Below, piece after piece: positions 43,708 through 51,156 of a DNA stretch of 64,000 nt. Numbering within the stretch: position 1 is the first letter of the stretch; each line of letters begins with the position of its first letter. Where the stretch lies: positions 608,001-672,000 of the forward strand of contig CAVYJM010000006.1 in NCBI GenBank assembly GCA_963768855.1. Direction: 5' to 3'. This stretch comes from an uncultured Thermoplasmata archaeon. GTDB taxonomy: Archaea > Thermoplasmatota > Thermoplasmata > RBG-16-68-12. The notes under the pieces were generated by a model. It was not told the origin of the DNA and did no database searches. It worked only from the letters and a program-made list of their open reading frames with translations. Position numbers and translations under genes: made by a program.

Positions 43708-44532
43708 ATGTCTCAGACGTATGTGACCCGCTACCATGGCGAAGAGCCGGTCCTCAACATCCAGAACCTCTGGAAGGCCTACGACGGCTCGCCGGCGCTG
43801 CAGGGGCTCTACCTCGCCTCGTACCCGGGCGAGATCTTCGGGCTCATCGGCCCGAACGGCGCGGGGAAGACGACGACGATCAAGATCCTCGTCGGCCTCT
43901 TGCGGCCCGACGCGGGCGAGGTGCACCTCCTGAACGAGGACATCCTCCGCGACCCAATCTCCTACAAGTCCAAGATCGGCTACATGCCCGAGGCGCCCAC
44001 CCTGCCCGAGTACCTCACGCCGACCGAGTTCCTCGGCTATGTCGCGCGCGTGCGGGACCTGCCGCGGGACCAGATCGCCCCGCGCACGGAGGAGCTCCTG
44101 CGGATGTACGACCTCTCCTCGAAGGCGGACGAGACGGTCGCCTCCCTGTCCAAGGGGATGAAGGCGAAGCTCGCGTTCGCCGCGGCGACGATCCACCGCC
44201 CCGTGTTCCTGATCCTCGACGAGCCCCTCATCGGGATCGACCCCGCGGGCCAGCACCTCGTGAAGGAGCACCTCGTCGACATCGCGAAGTCCGGTGGCAC
44301 GGTCCTCGTGTCGACGCACCAGCTCGACACGGCGGAGCGCCTGTGCAGCCGCGTCGCGATCGTCCACCGCGGCCGGAACGTGGCGACGGGCGACCTCGCG
44401 GCCCTCCGGTCCCAGGCCCACGCGGGCGAGCAGGGTTCGCTCGAGGAGATCTTCCTCAAGCTCACGGAGGAGGCCGGGCTGCCCGAGCCGGAGCGCCCGC
44501 GCCGCCGCGGCCTGCTCTCGCGACGGAGGTAG
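43708..44532 (+). CDS. ABC transporter ATP-binding protein
   Basis: GPNGAGKTT, LSKGMKAKL, LILDEPLIGIDP, STHQLD. Confidence 0.93.
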   Translation: MSQTYVTRYHGEEPVLNIQNLWKAYDGSPALQGLYLASYPGEIFGLIGPNGAGKTTTIKILVGLLRPDAGEVHLLNEDILRDPISYKSKIGYMPEAPTLPEYLTPTEFLGYVARVRDLPRDQIAPRTEELLRMYDLSSKADETVASLSKGMKAKLAFAAATIHRPVFLILDEPLIGIDPAGQHLVKEHLVDIAKSGGTVLVSTHQLDTAERLCSRVAIVHRGRNVATGDLAALRSQAHAGEQGSLEEIFLKLTEEAGLPEPERPRRRGLLSRRR

Positions 44533-44533
44533 G

Positions 44534-46087
44534 ATGTCCCGCGTCCTGACGCTCCTCTCCTACAAGATCCGATTCTTCTTCGGCCCCGCCCTCCGTGGAC
44601 GGCTCGGCCCGCTCGTCTACCTCGGACTGATCCTGCTCTTCGTCCCCTCGGGCTTCGGGATCGGGGTCGCGATCGCCTCGGGCATCAAGGACGCCAGCCC
44701 GGCCCAGGGCGTGGCCACGCTCAGCGGACCGCTCGGCCTGATCCTCGCGGTCGGGTTCCTCTACTCGGTCTTCTCCGGGGTCACCGCCCACGTCTCCGAG
44801 TTCGACTTCTTCATGACCTCGGACATCCGCCCCCGGGAATACCTGCTCGCGGACCTCCTCTTCCAGTTCTTCACCCTGTTCGGCGCGGGCGGGCTCGCCG
44901 CGATCGTCGCGGCGTTCGGGATGGTGTCGTTCGTCGGGCGTCCGATCGGTGCCGTCCTCCCCCTCGTCCTCTGCCTCTTCTCATTCGCCCTCGTCGTCCT
45001 CATGATCATCCAGATCGTCACGATCCTGGGCGTCCGGTATCCGAAGCGACCCGTCCGGTCGGCGGCGCTCGTCCTCTTCCTGCTCTCCCTGCTCCCCGCC
45101 GCGTCGCTCGCCTTCCCCGCGCTGCCCCTCCATCTCCAGGGGATCCCGCTCCCCACGACCGCCTTCGGCACCCTGGGCTACGATGCGCTCATGGGCCTTC
45201 CCCTCGACCCGACGAGCCTGCTCGTCGCCCTGGCGACCGTCCTCCTGGTCGCAGGCCTGTGGGTCGCCGTCTCCGACACGTACATCTTCCACGGGATCCA
45301 CCCGAGCCTCTCCGCGGGGTTCGGCCAGGTCGACATGGCGGCGCGGATGGCGCAGCAGCGGCGCATGACGGCGGGCTTCGGGAAGTTCACGACCGGCCTC
45401 ACCGTGCGGACGGACCGCGGGAACGACACGAGCTACATGTCGCGCTACCACCTCCTCCGGATCGTCCGCGACGGCAGCATCGTCTTCATCGCGCTCTTCG
45501 GGCTCATCTCCCTCATGCCCGTGTCCTTCACGGGCACGTCGACCGCCGCGGCCGGGGAGGCGCCCGTGGCCTACTTGGCGACCCAGATGCTGACCTTCCT
45601 CGTCGCCGTCCTCGCGCTGAACTGGTCCTACTACGAGCGGGAGAACCTCTGGATCGTGGTCGTCGCGGCCCGCTCCCCGGCGGCTTACTTCCGCGGTCTG
45701 CTCGTGAGCTTCATGGTGCTGGGCCTGCTCGTCGCCGCGGTCTTCAGCGTCTTCGTCGTGGCGACGAGCCCGTCCCTCGTCCCGCTCTCCCAGCTCGCGG
45801 TCCCGATCGCCGCGGCGGTCGCGGCCGCGCTCGTCTCGACCGCGCTCCTGACGAGGCTGAAGGTCCAGCCCTCGGCCTTCTCCGCTTCGATGCTCGCCAT
45901 CCTGGTCGCCGCGGTCCTCGCCGGTTACATGGGAGGGCTCCTCGCCCAGGGTCTCCTGATCGTCAGCGAGATCTCGCTCGGCCTGAACACGCTCGCCCAG
46001 GCGTTCGTCCTCCTCGCGTACTGCAGCGCCCTCGCCGCCTTCGGGATGTGGTGGGTCAGCCGGCTTGCCGCGGGCTTCCGTCTCTAG
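44534..46087 (+). CDS. polytopic membrane protein, probable ABC exporter permease
   Basis: About 12 TM; starts 1 nt after the ATPase stop. Confidence 0.78.
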   Translation: MSRVLTLLSYKIRFFFGPALRGRLGPLVYLGLILLFVPSGFGIGVAIASGIKDASPAQGVATLSGPLGLILAVGFLYSVFSGVTAHVSEFDFFMTSDIRPREYLLADLLFQFFTLFGAGGLAAIVAAFGMVSFVGRPIGAVLPLVLCLFSFALVVLMIIQIVTILGVRYPKRPVRSAALVLFLLSLLPAASLAFPALPLHLQGIPLPTTAFGTLGYDALMGLPLDPTSLLVALATVLLVAGLWVAVSDTYIFHGIHPSLSAGFGQVDMAARMAQQRRMTAGFGKFTTGLTVRTDRGNDTSYMSRYHLLRIVRDGSIVFIALFGLISLMPVSFTGTSTAAAGEAPVAYLATQMLTFLVAVLALNWSYYERENLWIVVVAARSPAAYFRGLLVSFMVLGLLVAAVFSVFVVATSPSLVPLSQLAVPIAAAVAAALVSTALLTRLKVQPSAFSASMLAILVAAVLAGYMGGLLAQGLLIVSEISLGLNTLAQAFVLLAYCSALAAFGMWWVSRLAAGFRL

Positions 46088-46417
46088 TCAGAGCGCGCCC
46101 TTCCGGAAGTCGTCGACCACGTCGCCGTACGCCTGGACGAAGTAGCGTGCCGCGTCCCGGAGGCCCTGGCGGCCCTCCCGGGTCAGGCGGTAGACCTTCT
46201 TCCCCGATCGGCCCTGGGGCTTGATGAGCCCCTCTTCCTGGAGGGCCTTCAGCGCGGGGTAGATCGTCCCGGGCGTGGGGCGGTCGAAGCGGCGCTTCGT
46301 GAGCTCGGTCGCGATCTCCGACCCGTACATGGGCCGCTTGCCGAGCAGGTAGAGGATCGAGAAGCTGAGGAAGCCGCGCATGTCGCAGCAGGCGGGCGGG
46401 GGACAGCACTCCGCCAT
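46088..46417 (-). CDS. PadR-family transcriptional regulator with CC-x4-CC N-terminal tag
   Basis: MAECCPPPACCDMRGFLSFSILYLL..PMYGSEI..PTPGTIYPALKAL.EEGLI..KKVYRLT.EG. Confidence 0.9.
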   Translation of the reverse strand: MAECCPPPACCDMRGFLSFSILYLLGKRPMYGSEIATELTKRRFDRPTPGTIYPALKALQEEGLIKPQGRSGKKVYRLTREGRQGLRDAARYFVQAYGDVVDDFRKGAL

Positions 46418-46460
46418 GGGGAGTTCCATGGAGGTCGGAAGCTCCCGGCGACGGATAAAT

Positions 46461-46536
46461 GTATTGGGCGTACGATTATTGGATGTACGATATCCTTATG
46501 TACCGCATCGGGAATCGGGTATTGGGCGTCCAATAC
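46461..46536. promoter_or_regulatory. repeated palindromic operator between padR and arsM
   Basis: Perfect GTATTGG-GCGT-CCAATAC (46519-46536), with degenerate copies GTATTGGGCGTACGATTA (46461) and TATTGGATGTACGATA (46478). Confidence 0.65.
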
Positions 46537-46551
46537 GCCTTGGAGACCGAG

Positions 46552-46677
46552 ATGTTCGGGAACTACGACGAACTGGCGAAGGTGCTGATGAAGGAGCGGG
46601 CGCGGACCGCATGCTGCCGCGGCCCGTTGCGAGAGTGGTGCAACCTCGAGTGCAGGACGGTCGTGCGGCATGGATGA
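46552..46677 (+). CDS. small Cys-rich peptide (41 aa) coupled to arsM
   Basis: TGGAG RBS-like sequence, ATG 46552, MFGNYDELAKVLMKERARTACCRGPLREWCNLECRTVVRHG; overlaps the arsM start. Confidence 0.5.
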   Translation: MFGNYDELAKVLMKERARTACCRGPLREWCNLECRTVVRHG

Positions 46678-47389
46678 ACTGACGATCCGCAGGACGGTCC
46701 GCGAGGTGTACGCGGGCCGGATGAAGGACTGCTGCGGGCCCGAGTCCGCATCGGACTGCGGATGCTCCTCCAACGTTCCCGCCTCGGATGCATCGAGTCC
46801 GCTCCTTTCCATCGGCAAGATGGGAGTCGGGAGCCCCGTGTCCACCCTCGACCCCCGTCCCGGCGAGATCGTCGTCGACCTGGGCAGCGGGCCTGGGCAC
46901 GATGTGCTCGAGGCCGCGGAACGCGTCGGGCCGAACGGACGCGCAATCGGCGTGGACGCGACCGCCGAGATGGTCTACCGCGCCCGGGAGGCCGCCCAGG
47001 CGCTCGGCCGGTCCAACGCGGAGTTCCGGCTCGGCGAGATCGAACACCTGCCCATCGAGTCGGGGACCGTCGACGCGGTCACCTCGGATTGCGTGATCAA
47101 CCTCTCCCCGGACAAGGCGGCCGTCTTCCGCGAAGCCTTCCGGATCCTGAAGCCCGGCGGACGGATCGTCGTCTCCGACGTCGTGGCGGACCGGGAGCTG
47201 CCCGCCGAGGTGCGGCGGGACGCCCAGCTCTGGGCCGCCTGCATCGCCGGGGCCGAGACGGAGGCGACGTACCTTGCGCTCCTCCGGGTCGCCGGTTTCG
47301 AGGACCTCCATTCCGAGAAGAAGGGCGTGTACGCGGCCGGTCTCTCGAAGGCGGTCGTCACCGCGAGGAAACCCCGGACCGCCGCCTGA
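46670..47389 (+). CDS. arsM: arsenite S-adenosylmethyltransferase-like protein
   Basis: VREVYA..CCG..CGC, PGEIVVDLGSGPGHD, IGVDATAEM, FRLGEIEHLP, VTSDCVINLSPDK, WAACIAGA. Confidence 0.82.
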   Translation: MDELTIRRTVREVYAGRMKDCCGPESASDCGCSSNVPASDASSPLLSIGKMGVGSPVSTLDPRPGEIVVDLGSGPGHDVLEAAERVGPNGRAIGVDATAEMVYRAREAAQALGRSNAEFRLGEIEHLPIESGTVDAVTSDCVINLSPDKAAVFREAFRILKPGGRIVVSDVVADRELPAEVRRDAQLWAACIAGAETEATYLALLRVAGFEDLHSEKKGVYAAGLSKAVVTARKPRTAA

Positions 47390-47464: not shown

Positions 47465-48214
47465 ATGGCCGTCGAGTCGTCGCCGAACAACGGATCCAAC
47501 GGAACCGCGCCCCCGAAGGACGACCGGATCGTCGTCGCGCGCAAGCTCGTGAAGACGTACGATACGGGCGAGATCGAGGTCCGCGCCCTGCGGGGCGTGA
47601 ACATCGACGTGCGGAAGGGCGAGATGGTCGCGGTCATGGGCCCGTCGGGTTGCGGCAAGACGACCCTCCTGAACTGCCTCTCCGGCATCGACGAGTTCAG
47701 CGGCGGGGAGGTCTGGATCGCAGGCCAGCGTCTCTCCCAGATGAACGACAACCAGAAGACGGATTTCCGGGCGATGAAGATGGGCTTCATCTTCCAGAAC
47801 TACAACCTGCTCCCGGTCCTGAGGTCCGTCGAGAACGTGGAGCTCCCGCTCCTCGTCCGCGGCGACGAGCCGAAGGAGTCCCGCCAGCGCGCGCTCGCGG
47901 CGCTCGAGGCCGTCGGCCTCCATGAGGAGGCGAACAAAAAGCCCGCCGAGCTGAGCGGCGGACAGCAGCAGCGCGTCTCGATCGCCCGCGCCCTCGTTAA
48001 CGAGCCGGACATCGTCTTCGGCGACGAGCCCACGGGCAACCTGGACTCGGAGACCACGCACGAGGTGCTCGACGTGATGAAGGCGTTGCATCGGGAGAAG
48101 CGGCTCACCTTCATCATCGTGACCCACGACTCGACCGTCGGGAACTCGACGGAGCGGGTCATCCTGATGCGGAACGGCCAGATCCTGAAGTCCTTCCGGC
48201 CCGCAGGCCTGTGA
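47465..48214 (+). CDS. ABC transporter ATP-binding protein (LolD/MacB type)
   Basis: GPSGCGKTT, GFIFQNYNLLP, LSGGQQQRVSIARAL, FGDEPTGNLD, IIVTHD. Confidence 0.95.
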   Translation: MAVESSPNNGSNGTAPPKDDRIVVARKLVKTYDTGEIEVRALRGVNIDVRKGEMVAVMGPSGCGKTTLLNCLSGIDEFSGGEVWIAGQRLSQMNDNQKTDFRAMKMGFIFQNYNLLPVLRSVENVELPLLVRGDEPKESRQRALAALEAVGLHEEANKKPAELSGGQQQRVSIARALVNEPDIVFGDEPTGNLDSETTHEVLDVMKALHREKRLTFIIVTHDSTVGNSTERVILMRNGQILKSFRPAGL

Positions 48215-48219
48215 GGCCC

Positions 48220-51156
48220 ATGGCGCTGGATCAGGGCGTCGTGCTGCTGGCCATCGTCGGCCTGGTCGTCCTCGTCCTCCTGGTCTGGACGGGGCGCAAG
48301 CGCTTCCCGCTCCGGATCGGCATGGGGAACTTCTTCCGCCGCAAGACCCAGGTGGCCATCGTCGTCGCGGGCCTCCTGATCGGCACCGCGATCATCAGCT
48401 CCTCCTACGTCATTCAGTCCACCTTCGACTATACGATCCGGAGCACGGTGTTCCACCAGCTCGACTACATCGACGAGACGATCACCGCCTCCAACGCCAC
48501 GGCCAACCGCATCCCCTTCGACCTTTCCGTGTTCCAGGGCCTCCAGGACAATCTGACGCGAGGGGAAATGCCCGCGGTGGCGAAGCTAGCCCCGCGGTAC
48601 GTGGTAGGCGCAGCCAGCAACGACACGAGGACGCTGCTCTTCGAGCCCACGGGGACGCTCATCGGCTTCAACGCGACGTACGACCTAGGCGAGTTCGTGC
48701 GGGCCGACGGCACGACGTGGAACGGCACGGGACTCGCGCAAAGCGAAGTCATCGTGAACCAGGCGTACGCGAACGACACGGAGGCGAAGGTCGGAGACCA
48801 GCTCTTCGTGTTCCCGGCGGGAATGGTTCACCCCCTCCGGCTCACCGTGGCCGCCGTCGTCTTGGACCAAGGTCGCGGAGGCTACAGTGGGAACGCGAAC
48901 CTATTTGCGCCGCTCGAGACGGTCCAGTCCGCCTTCGTTCTACCGTTCCAGCCCGTGAAGCCTCTCATCAACACGATCGTCGTCGCCAACGTCGGGGGGC
49001 CGACGCAGGGGTACCTCCACACGAGTGACGTCGACGCCCAGCTCACCGCGCACCTGCCTACGGGCCTCGGCCTGAGCATCTCGAACGTGAAGGAGGACGC
49101 AGTCACGCAGGCAACCCAGAATGTGGACATGCTGAGCCAGATCTTCCTCCTGCTCGGCTCTTTCACCATCATCGCGGGTGTCTTGCTCATCATCAACATC
49201 TTCGTCATGCTCGCGGAGGAGAGAAAGGGCGAGATGGGCGTGGAGCGAGCGCTCGGGATGCGCCGCAGCCACCTCGTCCAGAGCTTCGTCGCGGAGGGGC
49301 TGGCCTACGCGCTCTTGTCCGCGGCCGTGGGCACCTTCGCAGGCCTCCTCATCGCGGGCGTCATCCTGTGGGCCTTCACCTTGATCTTCCCCGCGCAGCT
49401 CTTCGGCGGCGTCCAGTTCGTCCTTACGTGGACGGCCCTCGACCTCATCCGGGGGTTTGCGATTGGCTTCCTGATCACGATGGGCACGATCCTCCTCGCT
49501 TCGTGGAGGGTCTCCAGGCTGAACATCGTGCGCGCGATCCGGGACATACCGGAGCCCGTGGAGCACCGCTCAACGAAGTGGCAGCTCGCCCTCGGCGGCT
49601 CTCTCGCGGGCCTCGGGGCCCTCCTCTCTCGTCGCCGCGATCGTCCGCGGAGACGTCCTTTTCCAGGACCTGGGACCGTCGAGCCTCGCCGTCGGGCTCG
49701 CAATTCTGCTTCGCAACGTCGTGACCCCTCGGGCGGCCTTCACCGCGGCGGGCGCGTTCATGGTCGTCTGGCTCCTGCTCCCCGAGCAAGCCCATCACGA
49801 GCTCGGACGTGAACATCGACGTGTTCGTCGCCGCGGGCCTCCTCATGGTCTTCGGGGCTCTCCTCCTGGTCATGTTCAACAGCGAGGTCCTCATCTGGGT
49901 GGCCACCCGGATCGGGCGGAAGCGCACCTGGCGCCCCGTTGTACGCACGGCGGTTGCCTACCCGATGAACAAGAAGTTCCGCACAGGTACGACCCTCGCC
50001 ACGATCTCCTGATCATGTTCACAATCGCCACGATGTCCGGGATCCAAGGGATCATCGGCTCGAGCATCACGACGACGGTCGTGCGGCAGAGCGGCGGCTA
50101 TGACCTCATCGGGAACTCCATCAGGCCCATCTCGGAGTCGAGCATCACCGAGAACCTTACGACACACCCCGCGTTGGGGCAGAACATCAGCGAGCTATGG
50201 GGCTTGTCCGCCATGAGGGCTGCGACCTCCTTCAACGCGAGCATGTCAGGGGACCTGCACAATACGACCCTGCTCGGCGTGCCGCAGGCCTGGGTGAACG
50301 CATCCATCCCGCTTGAGTTCCAGTCCTTGGATGCGAACTACTCCTCGCCACAGGCCGCCTGGGAGGCCATCGAGACGGATCCGCACCTCGCGATCGCGGA
50401 CGGGAGCGTCGTGCCTGGCGGGATGGGGGCGGGGGCCGGGTTCGGCGGGCGGAGGGTTCTTCACCTTCAGCGCGAAGGTGGGCGACACCCTATACTACGG
50501 CAGCAGGACCACCCAGCTCGGGTACGTGAAGCTCATCGGTATCCTATACGAGCAATTCGTGCCGGGGCTCTTCGTCGGCCGGAACGTGGTCACGGCGCTC
50601 TTCCCACATCGACGCGTCAAGCATCTTCTACGTGAAGGTGAGGGCGGGGGTCGACGCAACCGCCGTGGCGCACAACCTAGAGCGGGCCTTCCTCGAGGAG
50701 GGCATGGTGGCCATCGACCTCAACAACCTCGTCAGCCAGATCACGGACGTCATCACGGGCGTCTTCAACCTCCTCGAGGCGTACCTCGCCCTCGGCCTCA
50801 TCGTCGGGATCGCGGGGTTGGGCGTCATCACGATGCGGAATGTCGTCGAGCGGCGCACGGAGACGGGAGCGTTGCGTGCCCTGGGCTTCCGGAAGTCCAT
50901 GATTCTCGCCTCCTTCCTCCTCGAGCTCATGTTCATCGCGGTCACGGGGATCGCGATCGGCGACGCCCTCGGGATTGCTCTGTCGTATGACCTGTTCTTG
51001 AAGTTCTTCGCGGACACTGGGTACTTCTCGATCCCGTGGGACCGACTCGTCTTGCTGAGTTCCATCGCGTTCGTGGGCGCCGTCGTGGCCACGGCGAGTC
51101 CGGCGATCCGCGCGGCCCGCATGCCTCCGGCGGAGGCCCTGCGGAGCTACGAGTGA
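48220..51156 (+). pseudogene. large FtsX/MacB-type ABC permease broken by about 5 indels (near 49630, 49787, 50008, 50450, 50607)
   Basis: Two FtsX modules (ERKGEMGVERALG and ERRTETGALRALG) can be reassembled across frames; either errors or recent decay. Confidence 0.75.

Follow-up and report, generated by a model that had tools for sequence, protein, structure and literature searches.

ArsR/SmtB proteins, such as R773 ArsR, AfArsR (Cys95/96/102), and CgArsR1 (Cys15/16/55), are small dimeric winged-helix autorepressors that leave their palindromic operators once As(III) is bound by three thiolates. A PadR-family protein, PadRars of Azospirillum halopraeferens Au 4, reportedly senses trivalent metalloids via cysteine pairs (Zhang, Wu, Tang, Chen, Rosen, and Zhao, 2022); it is said to regulate arsV and arsW and to be a longer protein with internal and C-terminal cysteine pairs. 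Two papers cite PadRars as a PadR-family arsenic repressor of a bacterium (PMC12817078, PMC11566425). In AdMarR_ars from Achromobacter deleyi As-55, a vicinal Cys pair is joined by a third Cys, and As(III) or Sb(III) releases the repressor; the cysteine site of MarR_ars senses As(III), Sb(III), and methylarsenite [MAs(III)] (bioRxiv 10.1101/2021.08.12.456183). Here we compare these systems with a locus from an uncultured Thermoplasmata archaeon, located in a 64,000-nucleotide (nt) stretch of DNA (the window; GenBank assembly GCA_963768855.1, contig CAVYJM010000006.1, positions 608,001 to 672,000, forward strand), in which a gene for a PadR-family protein with a cysteine-rich N-terminal tail is divergent from a gene for an ArsM-like methyltransferase. 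The PadR-family protein is very probably an autorepressor that controls arsM through palindromic operators. We favor, with less assurance, the fuller interpretation that it is a metalloid-responsive autorepressor dedicated to arsM, with trivalent arsenicals acting as inducers at the cysteine tail.

RESULTS

A PadR-family gene linked to arsM

The module spans window positions 46088-47389 and consists of the PadR-family gene (46088..46429, minus strand), a 240-bp control region, an open reading frame (ORF) of 41 codons, and the ArsM-like gene. The 113-amino-acid (aa) PadR protein matched the Pfam PadR profile (PF03551) with 58.8 bits (E value, 5.3e-16; cutoff, 27 bits) over residues 25-91. The ArsR-type HTH_5 profile gave 16.6 bits, under its cutoff of 22, so that the protein falls outside ArsR/SmtB, a separate fold family. 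An earlier sequence-only reading of this DNA, which called the gene PadR type rather than ArsR type and described it as divergent from arsM with a doubled N-terminal CC, was correct. An AlphaFold2 model built on 28 relatives (mean predicted local distance difference test score, 82.8) has helices at residues 17-31, 36-45, and 53-65, a wing at 69-82, and a long helix at 84-109. This is the single-domain PadR layout, in which a winged helix-turn-helix is followed by one long C-terminal helix. The best PDB matches found with Foldseek were all small PadR proteins, namely, TA0346 (Thermoplasma), CdPadR_0991, Rv3488 (present in the PDB as a complex, reportedly with cadmium), RosR, and LmrR, with probabilities of 1.00 and TM scores of 0.6-0.8. 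Profile, topology, and length (~110 aa) place the window protein in the single-domain PadR subtype.

The 80 best PadR relatives, one locus per species genome, were compared, and a neighboring gene was called arsM if it encoded an ArsM homologue scoring >100 bits. An ArsM homologue was immediately upstream of and divergent from the PadR gene in 67/80 loci, with gaps of 69-640 bp, and two further loci had a partial ArsM at a contig end or as a fragment. ORF clustering over the 80 loci identified arsM as the sole partner conserved across lineages and found no such transporter. The sequence-only reading had made its proposal depend on conservation of this linkage, and the linkage held, as did the palindrome, which was present upstream of the PadR gene in 77/80 loci. 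The comparison supports the view that the Cys-tailed PadR gene, the palindromes, and arsM are a unit conserved across archaeal phyla.

Candidate operators and promoter elements

The family palindrome is 16 bp long (TATYGG-RYRY-CCRATA), with half-site centers 10 bp apart. Sites with ≤1 mismatch to this consensus occurred 165 times in 17.8 kb of PadR-upstream DNA and 15 times in 736 kb of flanking DNA, an enrichment of ~450-fold, and 64/80 PadR-upstream regions contained at least two sites. As a reverse control, 80 metagenome loci were chosen by ArsM similarity. Only 4/80 of these had the PadR gene, and the palindrome was found in exactly those 4, with a stray match in 1 of the other 76. These results indicate that the palindrome belongs to the PadR gene and not to arsM. 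The exact 16-bp consensus was found once in the 2.87-Mb host genome, at the site designated O1 below, and the regulon therefore looks local.

Three candidate operators lie in the window. O1 (46520..46535) matches the consensus perfectly and sits inside a perfect 18-bp palindrome at 46519-46536. O2 (46477..46492; one mismatch) and O3 (46462..46477; two mismatches) have one base in common. The sequence-only reading had listed one perfect and two degenerate palindromes; the perfect copy stands, whereas the degenerate copies are 4 mismatches away from the pattern proposed there (a search at ≤3 did not recover them) and yet only 1 and 2 mismatches away from the family consensus. Seven other species of the genus retain an intact locus, and in each of them O3, O2, and O1 occupy the same positions, ~210, ~195, and ~150 nt before the arsM ATG.

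When the control regions of six species of this genus were aligned, conservation was limited to an ATAAA(T) block, O3, O2, a TTATGTA-like block, O1, and GGAG. The ATAAA(T) block marks a TATA-like box on the padR side (46455..46460, minus strand), which lies 26 nt 5′ of the padR ATG and abuts O3. The A/T-rich block on the arsM side (TTATGTA, TTAAGTA, TTTTATA, or TCATRTA in the six genomes) marks a second TATA-like box (46495..46502, plus strand), which abuts O2 and would serve a micro-ORF-arsM transcript. O1 is ~25 nt downstream of this second box, over the predicted transcription start. A scan for sigma-70 promoters and intrinsic terminators found nothing, as expected for an archaeon. The conserved A/T blocks are likely archaeal promoter elements, that is, two divergent TATA boxes with O2 and O3 between them, and the padR transcript would be leaderless or nearly so. 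Since O2 and O3 lie between the divergent boxes and O1 lies over the arsM-side start, bound repressor would shut off both padR and arsM.

The cysteine tail and its covariation with arsM

The only cysteines of the window PadR are residues 8, 9, 14, and 15, which form an N-terminal CC-x4-CC directly before helix 1 (residues 8-15; codons at 46385..46408, minus strand) and are the proposed thiolate site. The first 16 residues are unstructured in the AlphaFold2 model, with low confidence in the tail. The tail motif C-C-P-P-x-C-C-D-M-R-G is kept in relatives at ~50% identity, among them proteins from Thermoplasmata, Thor-, Hermod-, Hod-, and Bathyarchaeia, Hydrothermarchaeales, Methanocellales, Methanosarcinaceae, and other lineages. 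With the full CC-x-CC tail, arsM was present in 56 loci and absent from 4 (n = 60). For proteins with three tail cysteines, arsM was present in 9 loci and absent from 4; for those with CC only, it was present in 2 and absent from 2; and for those with a single tail cysteine, it was absent from all 3. Loss of tail cysteines thus accompanies loss of the arsM linkage, which suggests that the tail serves the function of arsM and not the fold.

Among the loci with arsM, most preserve a C-P-P-x-C-C core, which offers three thiols, the usual ligand set for As(III). Known As(III) sites of the form CC-x4/5-C occur in ArsD and AfArsR, and the CC-x4-C spacing of the PadR tail recalls them. CgArsR1 likewise has an N-terminal vicinal Cys pair.

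Other arrangements of cysteines were seen among the relatives. A sister group of PadR proteins (loci L067, L069, L071, L073, L078, L079, and L080) retains (C)C-D-M-R-G alone; both the first Cys pair and arsM are missing, and four sister-group loci have a conserved gene for a 208-aa helix-turn-helix-like protein just downstream of PadR. In the alignment of Asgard and Bathyarchaeia proteins, most relatives outside Thermoplasmata have an additional C-x-C or C-x-x-C near the C terminus, possibly a second thiol site, which the window protein lacks.

An ArsM variant without the Cys72 equivalent

The ArsM-like protein (46670..47389, plus strand) is a 239-aa S-adenosylmethionine (SAM) methyltransferase. 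It scored 241.1 bits against NCBIfam PRK11873 (cutoff, 263 bits), covering profile positions 29-237 of 272, and its best PDB matches were ArsM structures (5evj, 5.7e-30). It has the same fold and SAM motif as CmArsM and AS3MT and keeps the N-terminal CC and the equivalents of Cys174 and Cys224; unlike them, it has no C-terminal domain (239 aa versus about 380), and its gene is preceded by a coupled micro-ORF. The N-terminal CC and the cysteines of DCVINL and ACIAGA are invariant. Three of the four ArsM cysteines (CmArsM Cys44, 72, 174, and 224) are present in the window protein. Its GVGSP aligns with GCGNP and puts Val at the Cys72 position; the sequence-only reading had likewise called the protein an ArsM variant. 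The Val variant, GVG[S/D/E/A][P/T], was found in 8/8 species of the genus, compared with 0/16 aligned ArsMs elsewhere and 0/74 metagenome ArsMs with a recognizable motif. A metagenome scan with the ArsM alignment of this clade found no further GVG-type ArsM, and all matches were ≤59% identical.

All four conserved ArsM cysteines are needed for As(III) methylation, while Cys44 and Cys72 are dispensable for conversion of MAs(III) to dimethylarsenite [DMAs(III)] (PMC6138428, a review from the Rosen laboratory). By analogy, an ArsM lacking Cys72 may accept only MAs(III), provided that no other thiol takes the place of this cysteine. Because its score is under the cutoff and one catalytic cysteine is lost, the substrate of the window enzyme is uncertain.

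A 41-codon micro-ORF overlapping arsM

The micro-ORF (46552..46677, plus strand) is preceded by a Shine-Dalgarno-like GGAG (46542..46545, plus strand; 6 nt 5′ of its start), and GG(A/G)G was kept at this place in 6/6 aligned genomes. As the sequence-only reading had noted, it encodes a 41-aa peptide with CC and CxxxC and overlaps the arsM start. The overlap with the arsM ATG is 8 nt (ATGGATGA) and was kept in 7/8 species. An open frame of 41-44 codons with its start codon at the same place was present in 8/8 species of the genus. The sequence of the micro-ORF is loosely conserved: it begins with MFG, has a central E, and contains a W/F-C-x-x-E core; beyond the nearest relative, identity was 34-41%. 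A single cysteine, which follows W or F, is invariant; 6/8 species have CxxxC and 2/8 have CC, and every copy has at least two cysteines. Codon-position bias is weak and lends little support to selection on the protein, distant pairs show no excess of third-codon-position changes, and no 7-mer is conserved across the copies. Outside the genus, no lineage with the module had the micro-ORF. Since the arsM gene lacks a GGAG, translational coupling is the minimal function assigned to the micro-ORF.

ArsD metallochaperones are recognized by the ArsD profile, a conserved Cys12-Cys13-Cys18, and an ArsA partner. The 41-aa peptide matched nothing in Pfam or NCBIfam and, as stated above, has CC in only 2/8 species; the host genome contains no ArsD gene, and its sole ArsA_ATPase match is marginal (26.9 bits, with a cutoff of 24.3, over 32 of 305 profile positions). 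These findings speak against the suggestion in the sequence-only reading that the peptide is an ArsD-like shuttle. A prediction of the complex of ArsM with the peptide scored 0.02, a result that counts neither for nor against binding. An exact look-up in public gene calls found 1/4 peptide variants and is uninformative, since gene callers skip such ORFs.

Because both the peptide and the ArsM N terminus contain CC-x7-C, an origin of the peptide by duplication of the ArsM N terminus was considered; profile-profile comparison found nothing, and the idea was rejected. Many Thorarchaeota loci with wide gaps (L016, L018, L024, L025, L030, L031, L036, L046, L048, L051, and L061) have a different ORF of ~45 codons between the operator and arsM, with an S-C-Q-x-S-(x)-C core and a hydrophobic end, and in some the ArsM N-terminal helix plus CC is additionally present as a separate copy. 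Small Cys ORFs ahead of arsM have thus arisen more than once.

Other arsenic genes, distribution, and genomic setting

The host genome assembly (2.87 Mb; 65.9% G+C; completeness, 93.6%; contamination, 7.7%) has one copy each of the PadR gene, the micro-ORF, and arsM; its nearest named relatives are Thermoplasmata metagenome-assembled genomes. No arsR, acr3, or low-molecular-weight phosphatase (LMWP)-type arsC homologue was found in the window, in line with the sequence-only reading; glutaredoxin-type arsC (PF03960) was outside this search. On another contig, an ACR3 gene (TIGR00832, 417.6 bits) is directly downstream of an ArsR/SmtB gene (NF033788, 89.5 bits), with an LMWP ArsC-like gene 2 kb from the pair (locus span, C10:74757-78072). 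A gene for Ni-superoxide dismutase adjoins acr3 there. The presence of a classical arsR-acr3 pair elsewhere means that PadR does not replace ArsR genome-wide; PadR would be a second, arsM-dedicated regulator beside ArsR.

Within the order of the host, the module was present in 9/79 genomes, all of one genus, where it was found in 9/38 genomes (8/37 besides the host); it was present in 0/41 genomes from the nine other genera. The module is thus an accessory, patchy trait within the order, and its patchy presence in the genus together with its absence from the other genera points to acquisition by transfer or to frequent loss. In all species of the genus whose locus is intact, the O2/O3 tandem plus O1, the ORF of 41-44 codons, and the Val-variant ArsM occur together. 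These three features were absent from the other lineages examined, where operator count and layout were compared by tally. In one related genome (L002 / L169), the 5′ half of arsM and the control region are interrupted by a break in the translated frames; only ArsM residues 82-235 align, an assembly gap is possible, and the locus was left out of scoring.

Sets of ABC transporter genes lie on both sides of the module (43708-46087 and 47465-51156). On the upstream side, the last base of the permease gene is 46087, which adjoins the stop of the PadR gene on the opposite strand at a distance of one base, and a MacB/FtsX-like pair on the same strand as arsM begins 75 nt past it. The possibility that these ABC transporter genes belong to the module was rejected, as their synteny is confined to the genus. 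No operator was found ahead of the ABC transporter or MacB/FtsX-like genes.

DISCUSSION

A mechanism for the locus can be proposed from these observations. The PadR protein, a dimer by family precedent, would bind the palindromes at O1 to O3, as their placement suggests. Its flexible N-terminal tail would offer the C-P-P-x-C-C thiols plus a fourth to a trivalent arsenical. Binding of As(III) or MAs(III), and possibly Sb(III), to these thiols would alter the packing of the tail against helix 1, and DNA would be released. Translation of arsM is probably coupled to that of the 41-codon ORF, and by analogy with CmArsM mutants, the enzyme may act mainly on MAs(III). An arsenical is proposed as the ligand because arsM is the exclusive partner gene, the tail has a three-thiol core, and two bacterial winged-helix regulators, MarR_ars and PadRars, set a precedent.

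Several observations weigh against this proposal. For this Cys-tailed PadR family, the choice of an arsenical as ligand follows only from the identity of the partner gene and the chemistry of thiols; the TATA boxes and the starts of transcription are a reading of the sequence alone; and the tail is disordered in the model, so that no geometry backs an S3 site. The ArsM-like score falls just under the NCBI cutoff (241 versus 263 bits), one catalytic Cys is absent, and the genome already has a classical arsR-acr3 sensor, which leaves the need for a second one unexplained. Four clustered cysteines could equally suit redox sensing or binding of Cd, Hg, Cu, or Zn. The low score, the absent Cys, and the existing arsR-acr3 pair would fit a tail that senses nonarsenicals (thiol oxidation or disulfide stress, reactive sulfur species, or the same metals) and an enzyme that methylates another thiophilic substrate, and the reactive-oxygen regulator RosR and the reportedly cadmium-binding Rv3488 are among the PadR-fold relatives. 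However, the ArsM that is the sole cross-phylum partner of the PadR gene has GCGNP and all four canonical cysteines, i.e., it is an ordinary arsenite methyltransferase, the three-thiol core fits the known number of As(III) ligands, and both published non-ArsR winged-helix regulators with vicinal cysteines are reported to respond to trivalent metalloids. We therefore judge a nonarsenical signal to be unlikely, although it is the stronger of the two alternatives for the tail. The other would make the tail structural, as a Zn knuckle or a dimer staple, with a repressor that answers an organic ligand bound in the customary PadR pocket, or none, and an arsM that is autoregulated or constitutively damped. 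Most characterized PadR proteins do bind organic ligands, and the tail is not resolved in the model, but a single-domain PadR protein as small as this one lacks a distinct domain for a ligand, and the joint loss of tail cysteines and arsM linkage would be hard to reconcile with a structural part, making this explanation very improbable.

With respect to the micro-ORF, the chances are close to even, if slightly short of it, that it has no protein function and is merely a coupling device bringing ribosomes to arsM on a long leader. Its low identity, the lack of a third-codon-position excess in distant pairs, its absence from other module-bearing lineages, and the 8-nt overlap with an arsM that has no GGAG of its own are as such a device would predict; yet its length is held at 41-44 codons, the MFG start and W/F-C-x-x-E core persist in 8 species with at least two cysteines in each copy, and its appearance coincides exactly with loss of the GCGNP Cys from ArsM, seen in 8/8 species here and in none of about 130 other ArsM loci, a coincidence that is a single evolutionary event and suggestive only. 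A role of the peptide as a thiol partner is possible but unsupported. In its most elaborate form, the microprotein would supply the redox cysteine equivalent to Cys72 in trans or gate ArsM to MAs(III), in a two-part enzyme, and PadR would be a methylarsenite-selective sensor beside the ArsR of As(III) efflux. We consider this version quite unlikely; if true, it would mean that a single archaeon senses inorganic arsenic and methylated arsenic through different channels.

The locus resembles the described bacterial systems in part. PadRars, too, belongs to the PadR family; it represses arsenic genes and binds inverted repeats within the promoter region of its own gene, a mode of binding that is predicted here. 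The PadRars operator, CCTTGA-N11-TCAAGG (PMC12817078), differs from TATYGG-N4-CCRATA, and the archaeal sites are thus not of the PadRars type. Compared at the family level, PadRars is bacterial, while the protein described here is archaeal, has arsM as its target, and carries its cysteines only in the N-terminal tail of a 113-aa protein. MarR_ars, likewise a winged-helix repressor outside ArsR that was recruited to arsenic genes, has the MarR fold, is bacterial, and regulates arsV, in contrast with a PadR fold, an archaeal host, and arsM here. Our literature search found nothing on PadR with arsM or on PadR in archaeal arsenic control. The word "undescribed" in the sequence-only reading was nonetheless too strong, as PadRars (cited in PMC12817078 and PMC11566425) and MarR_ars are published. 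The archaeal CPPxCC PadR family with its own operator and target did not appear in the literature searched, while the concept of a PadR arsenic repressor was already published for a bacterium. The additions specific to this Thermoplasmata genus are the triple operator, the coupled micro-ORF, an ArsM that lacks Cys72, and the presence of arsR-acr3 in the same genome.

In anoxic sediments, paddy soils, and aquifers, arsenic is methylated and volatilized through arsM. A regulator that is dedicated to this gene, is kept across phyla, and has a defined 16-bp operator and a three-thiol tail would offer a testable account of how archaea control arsM. The operator and PadR signature could flag regulated arsM genes in metagenomes, and the PadR/operator pair may find use as a small archaeal part for biosensors. 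The pairing of a Cys72-less ArsM with a coupled micro-ORF amounts to a natural test of the disulfide-cascade model for the methylation of arsenic. If the arsenical-responsive interpretation is true, this PadR family would represent a third independent instance, following ArsR and in parallel with PadRars and MarR_ars of bacteria, in which a winged-helix scaffold gained a site of cysteines for trivalent metalloids.

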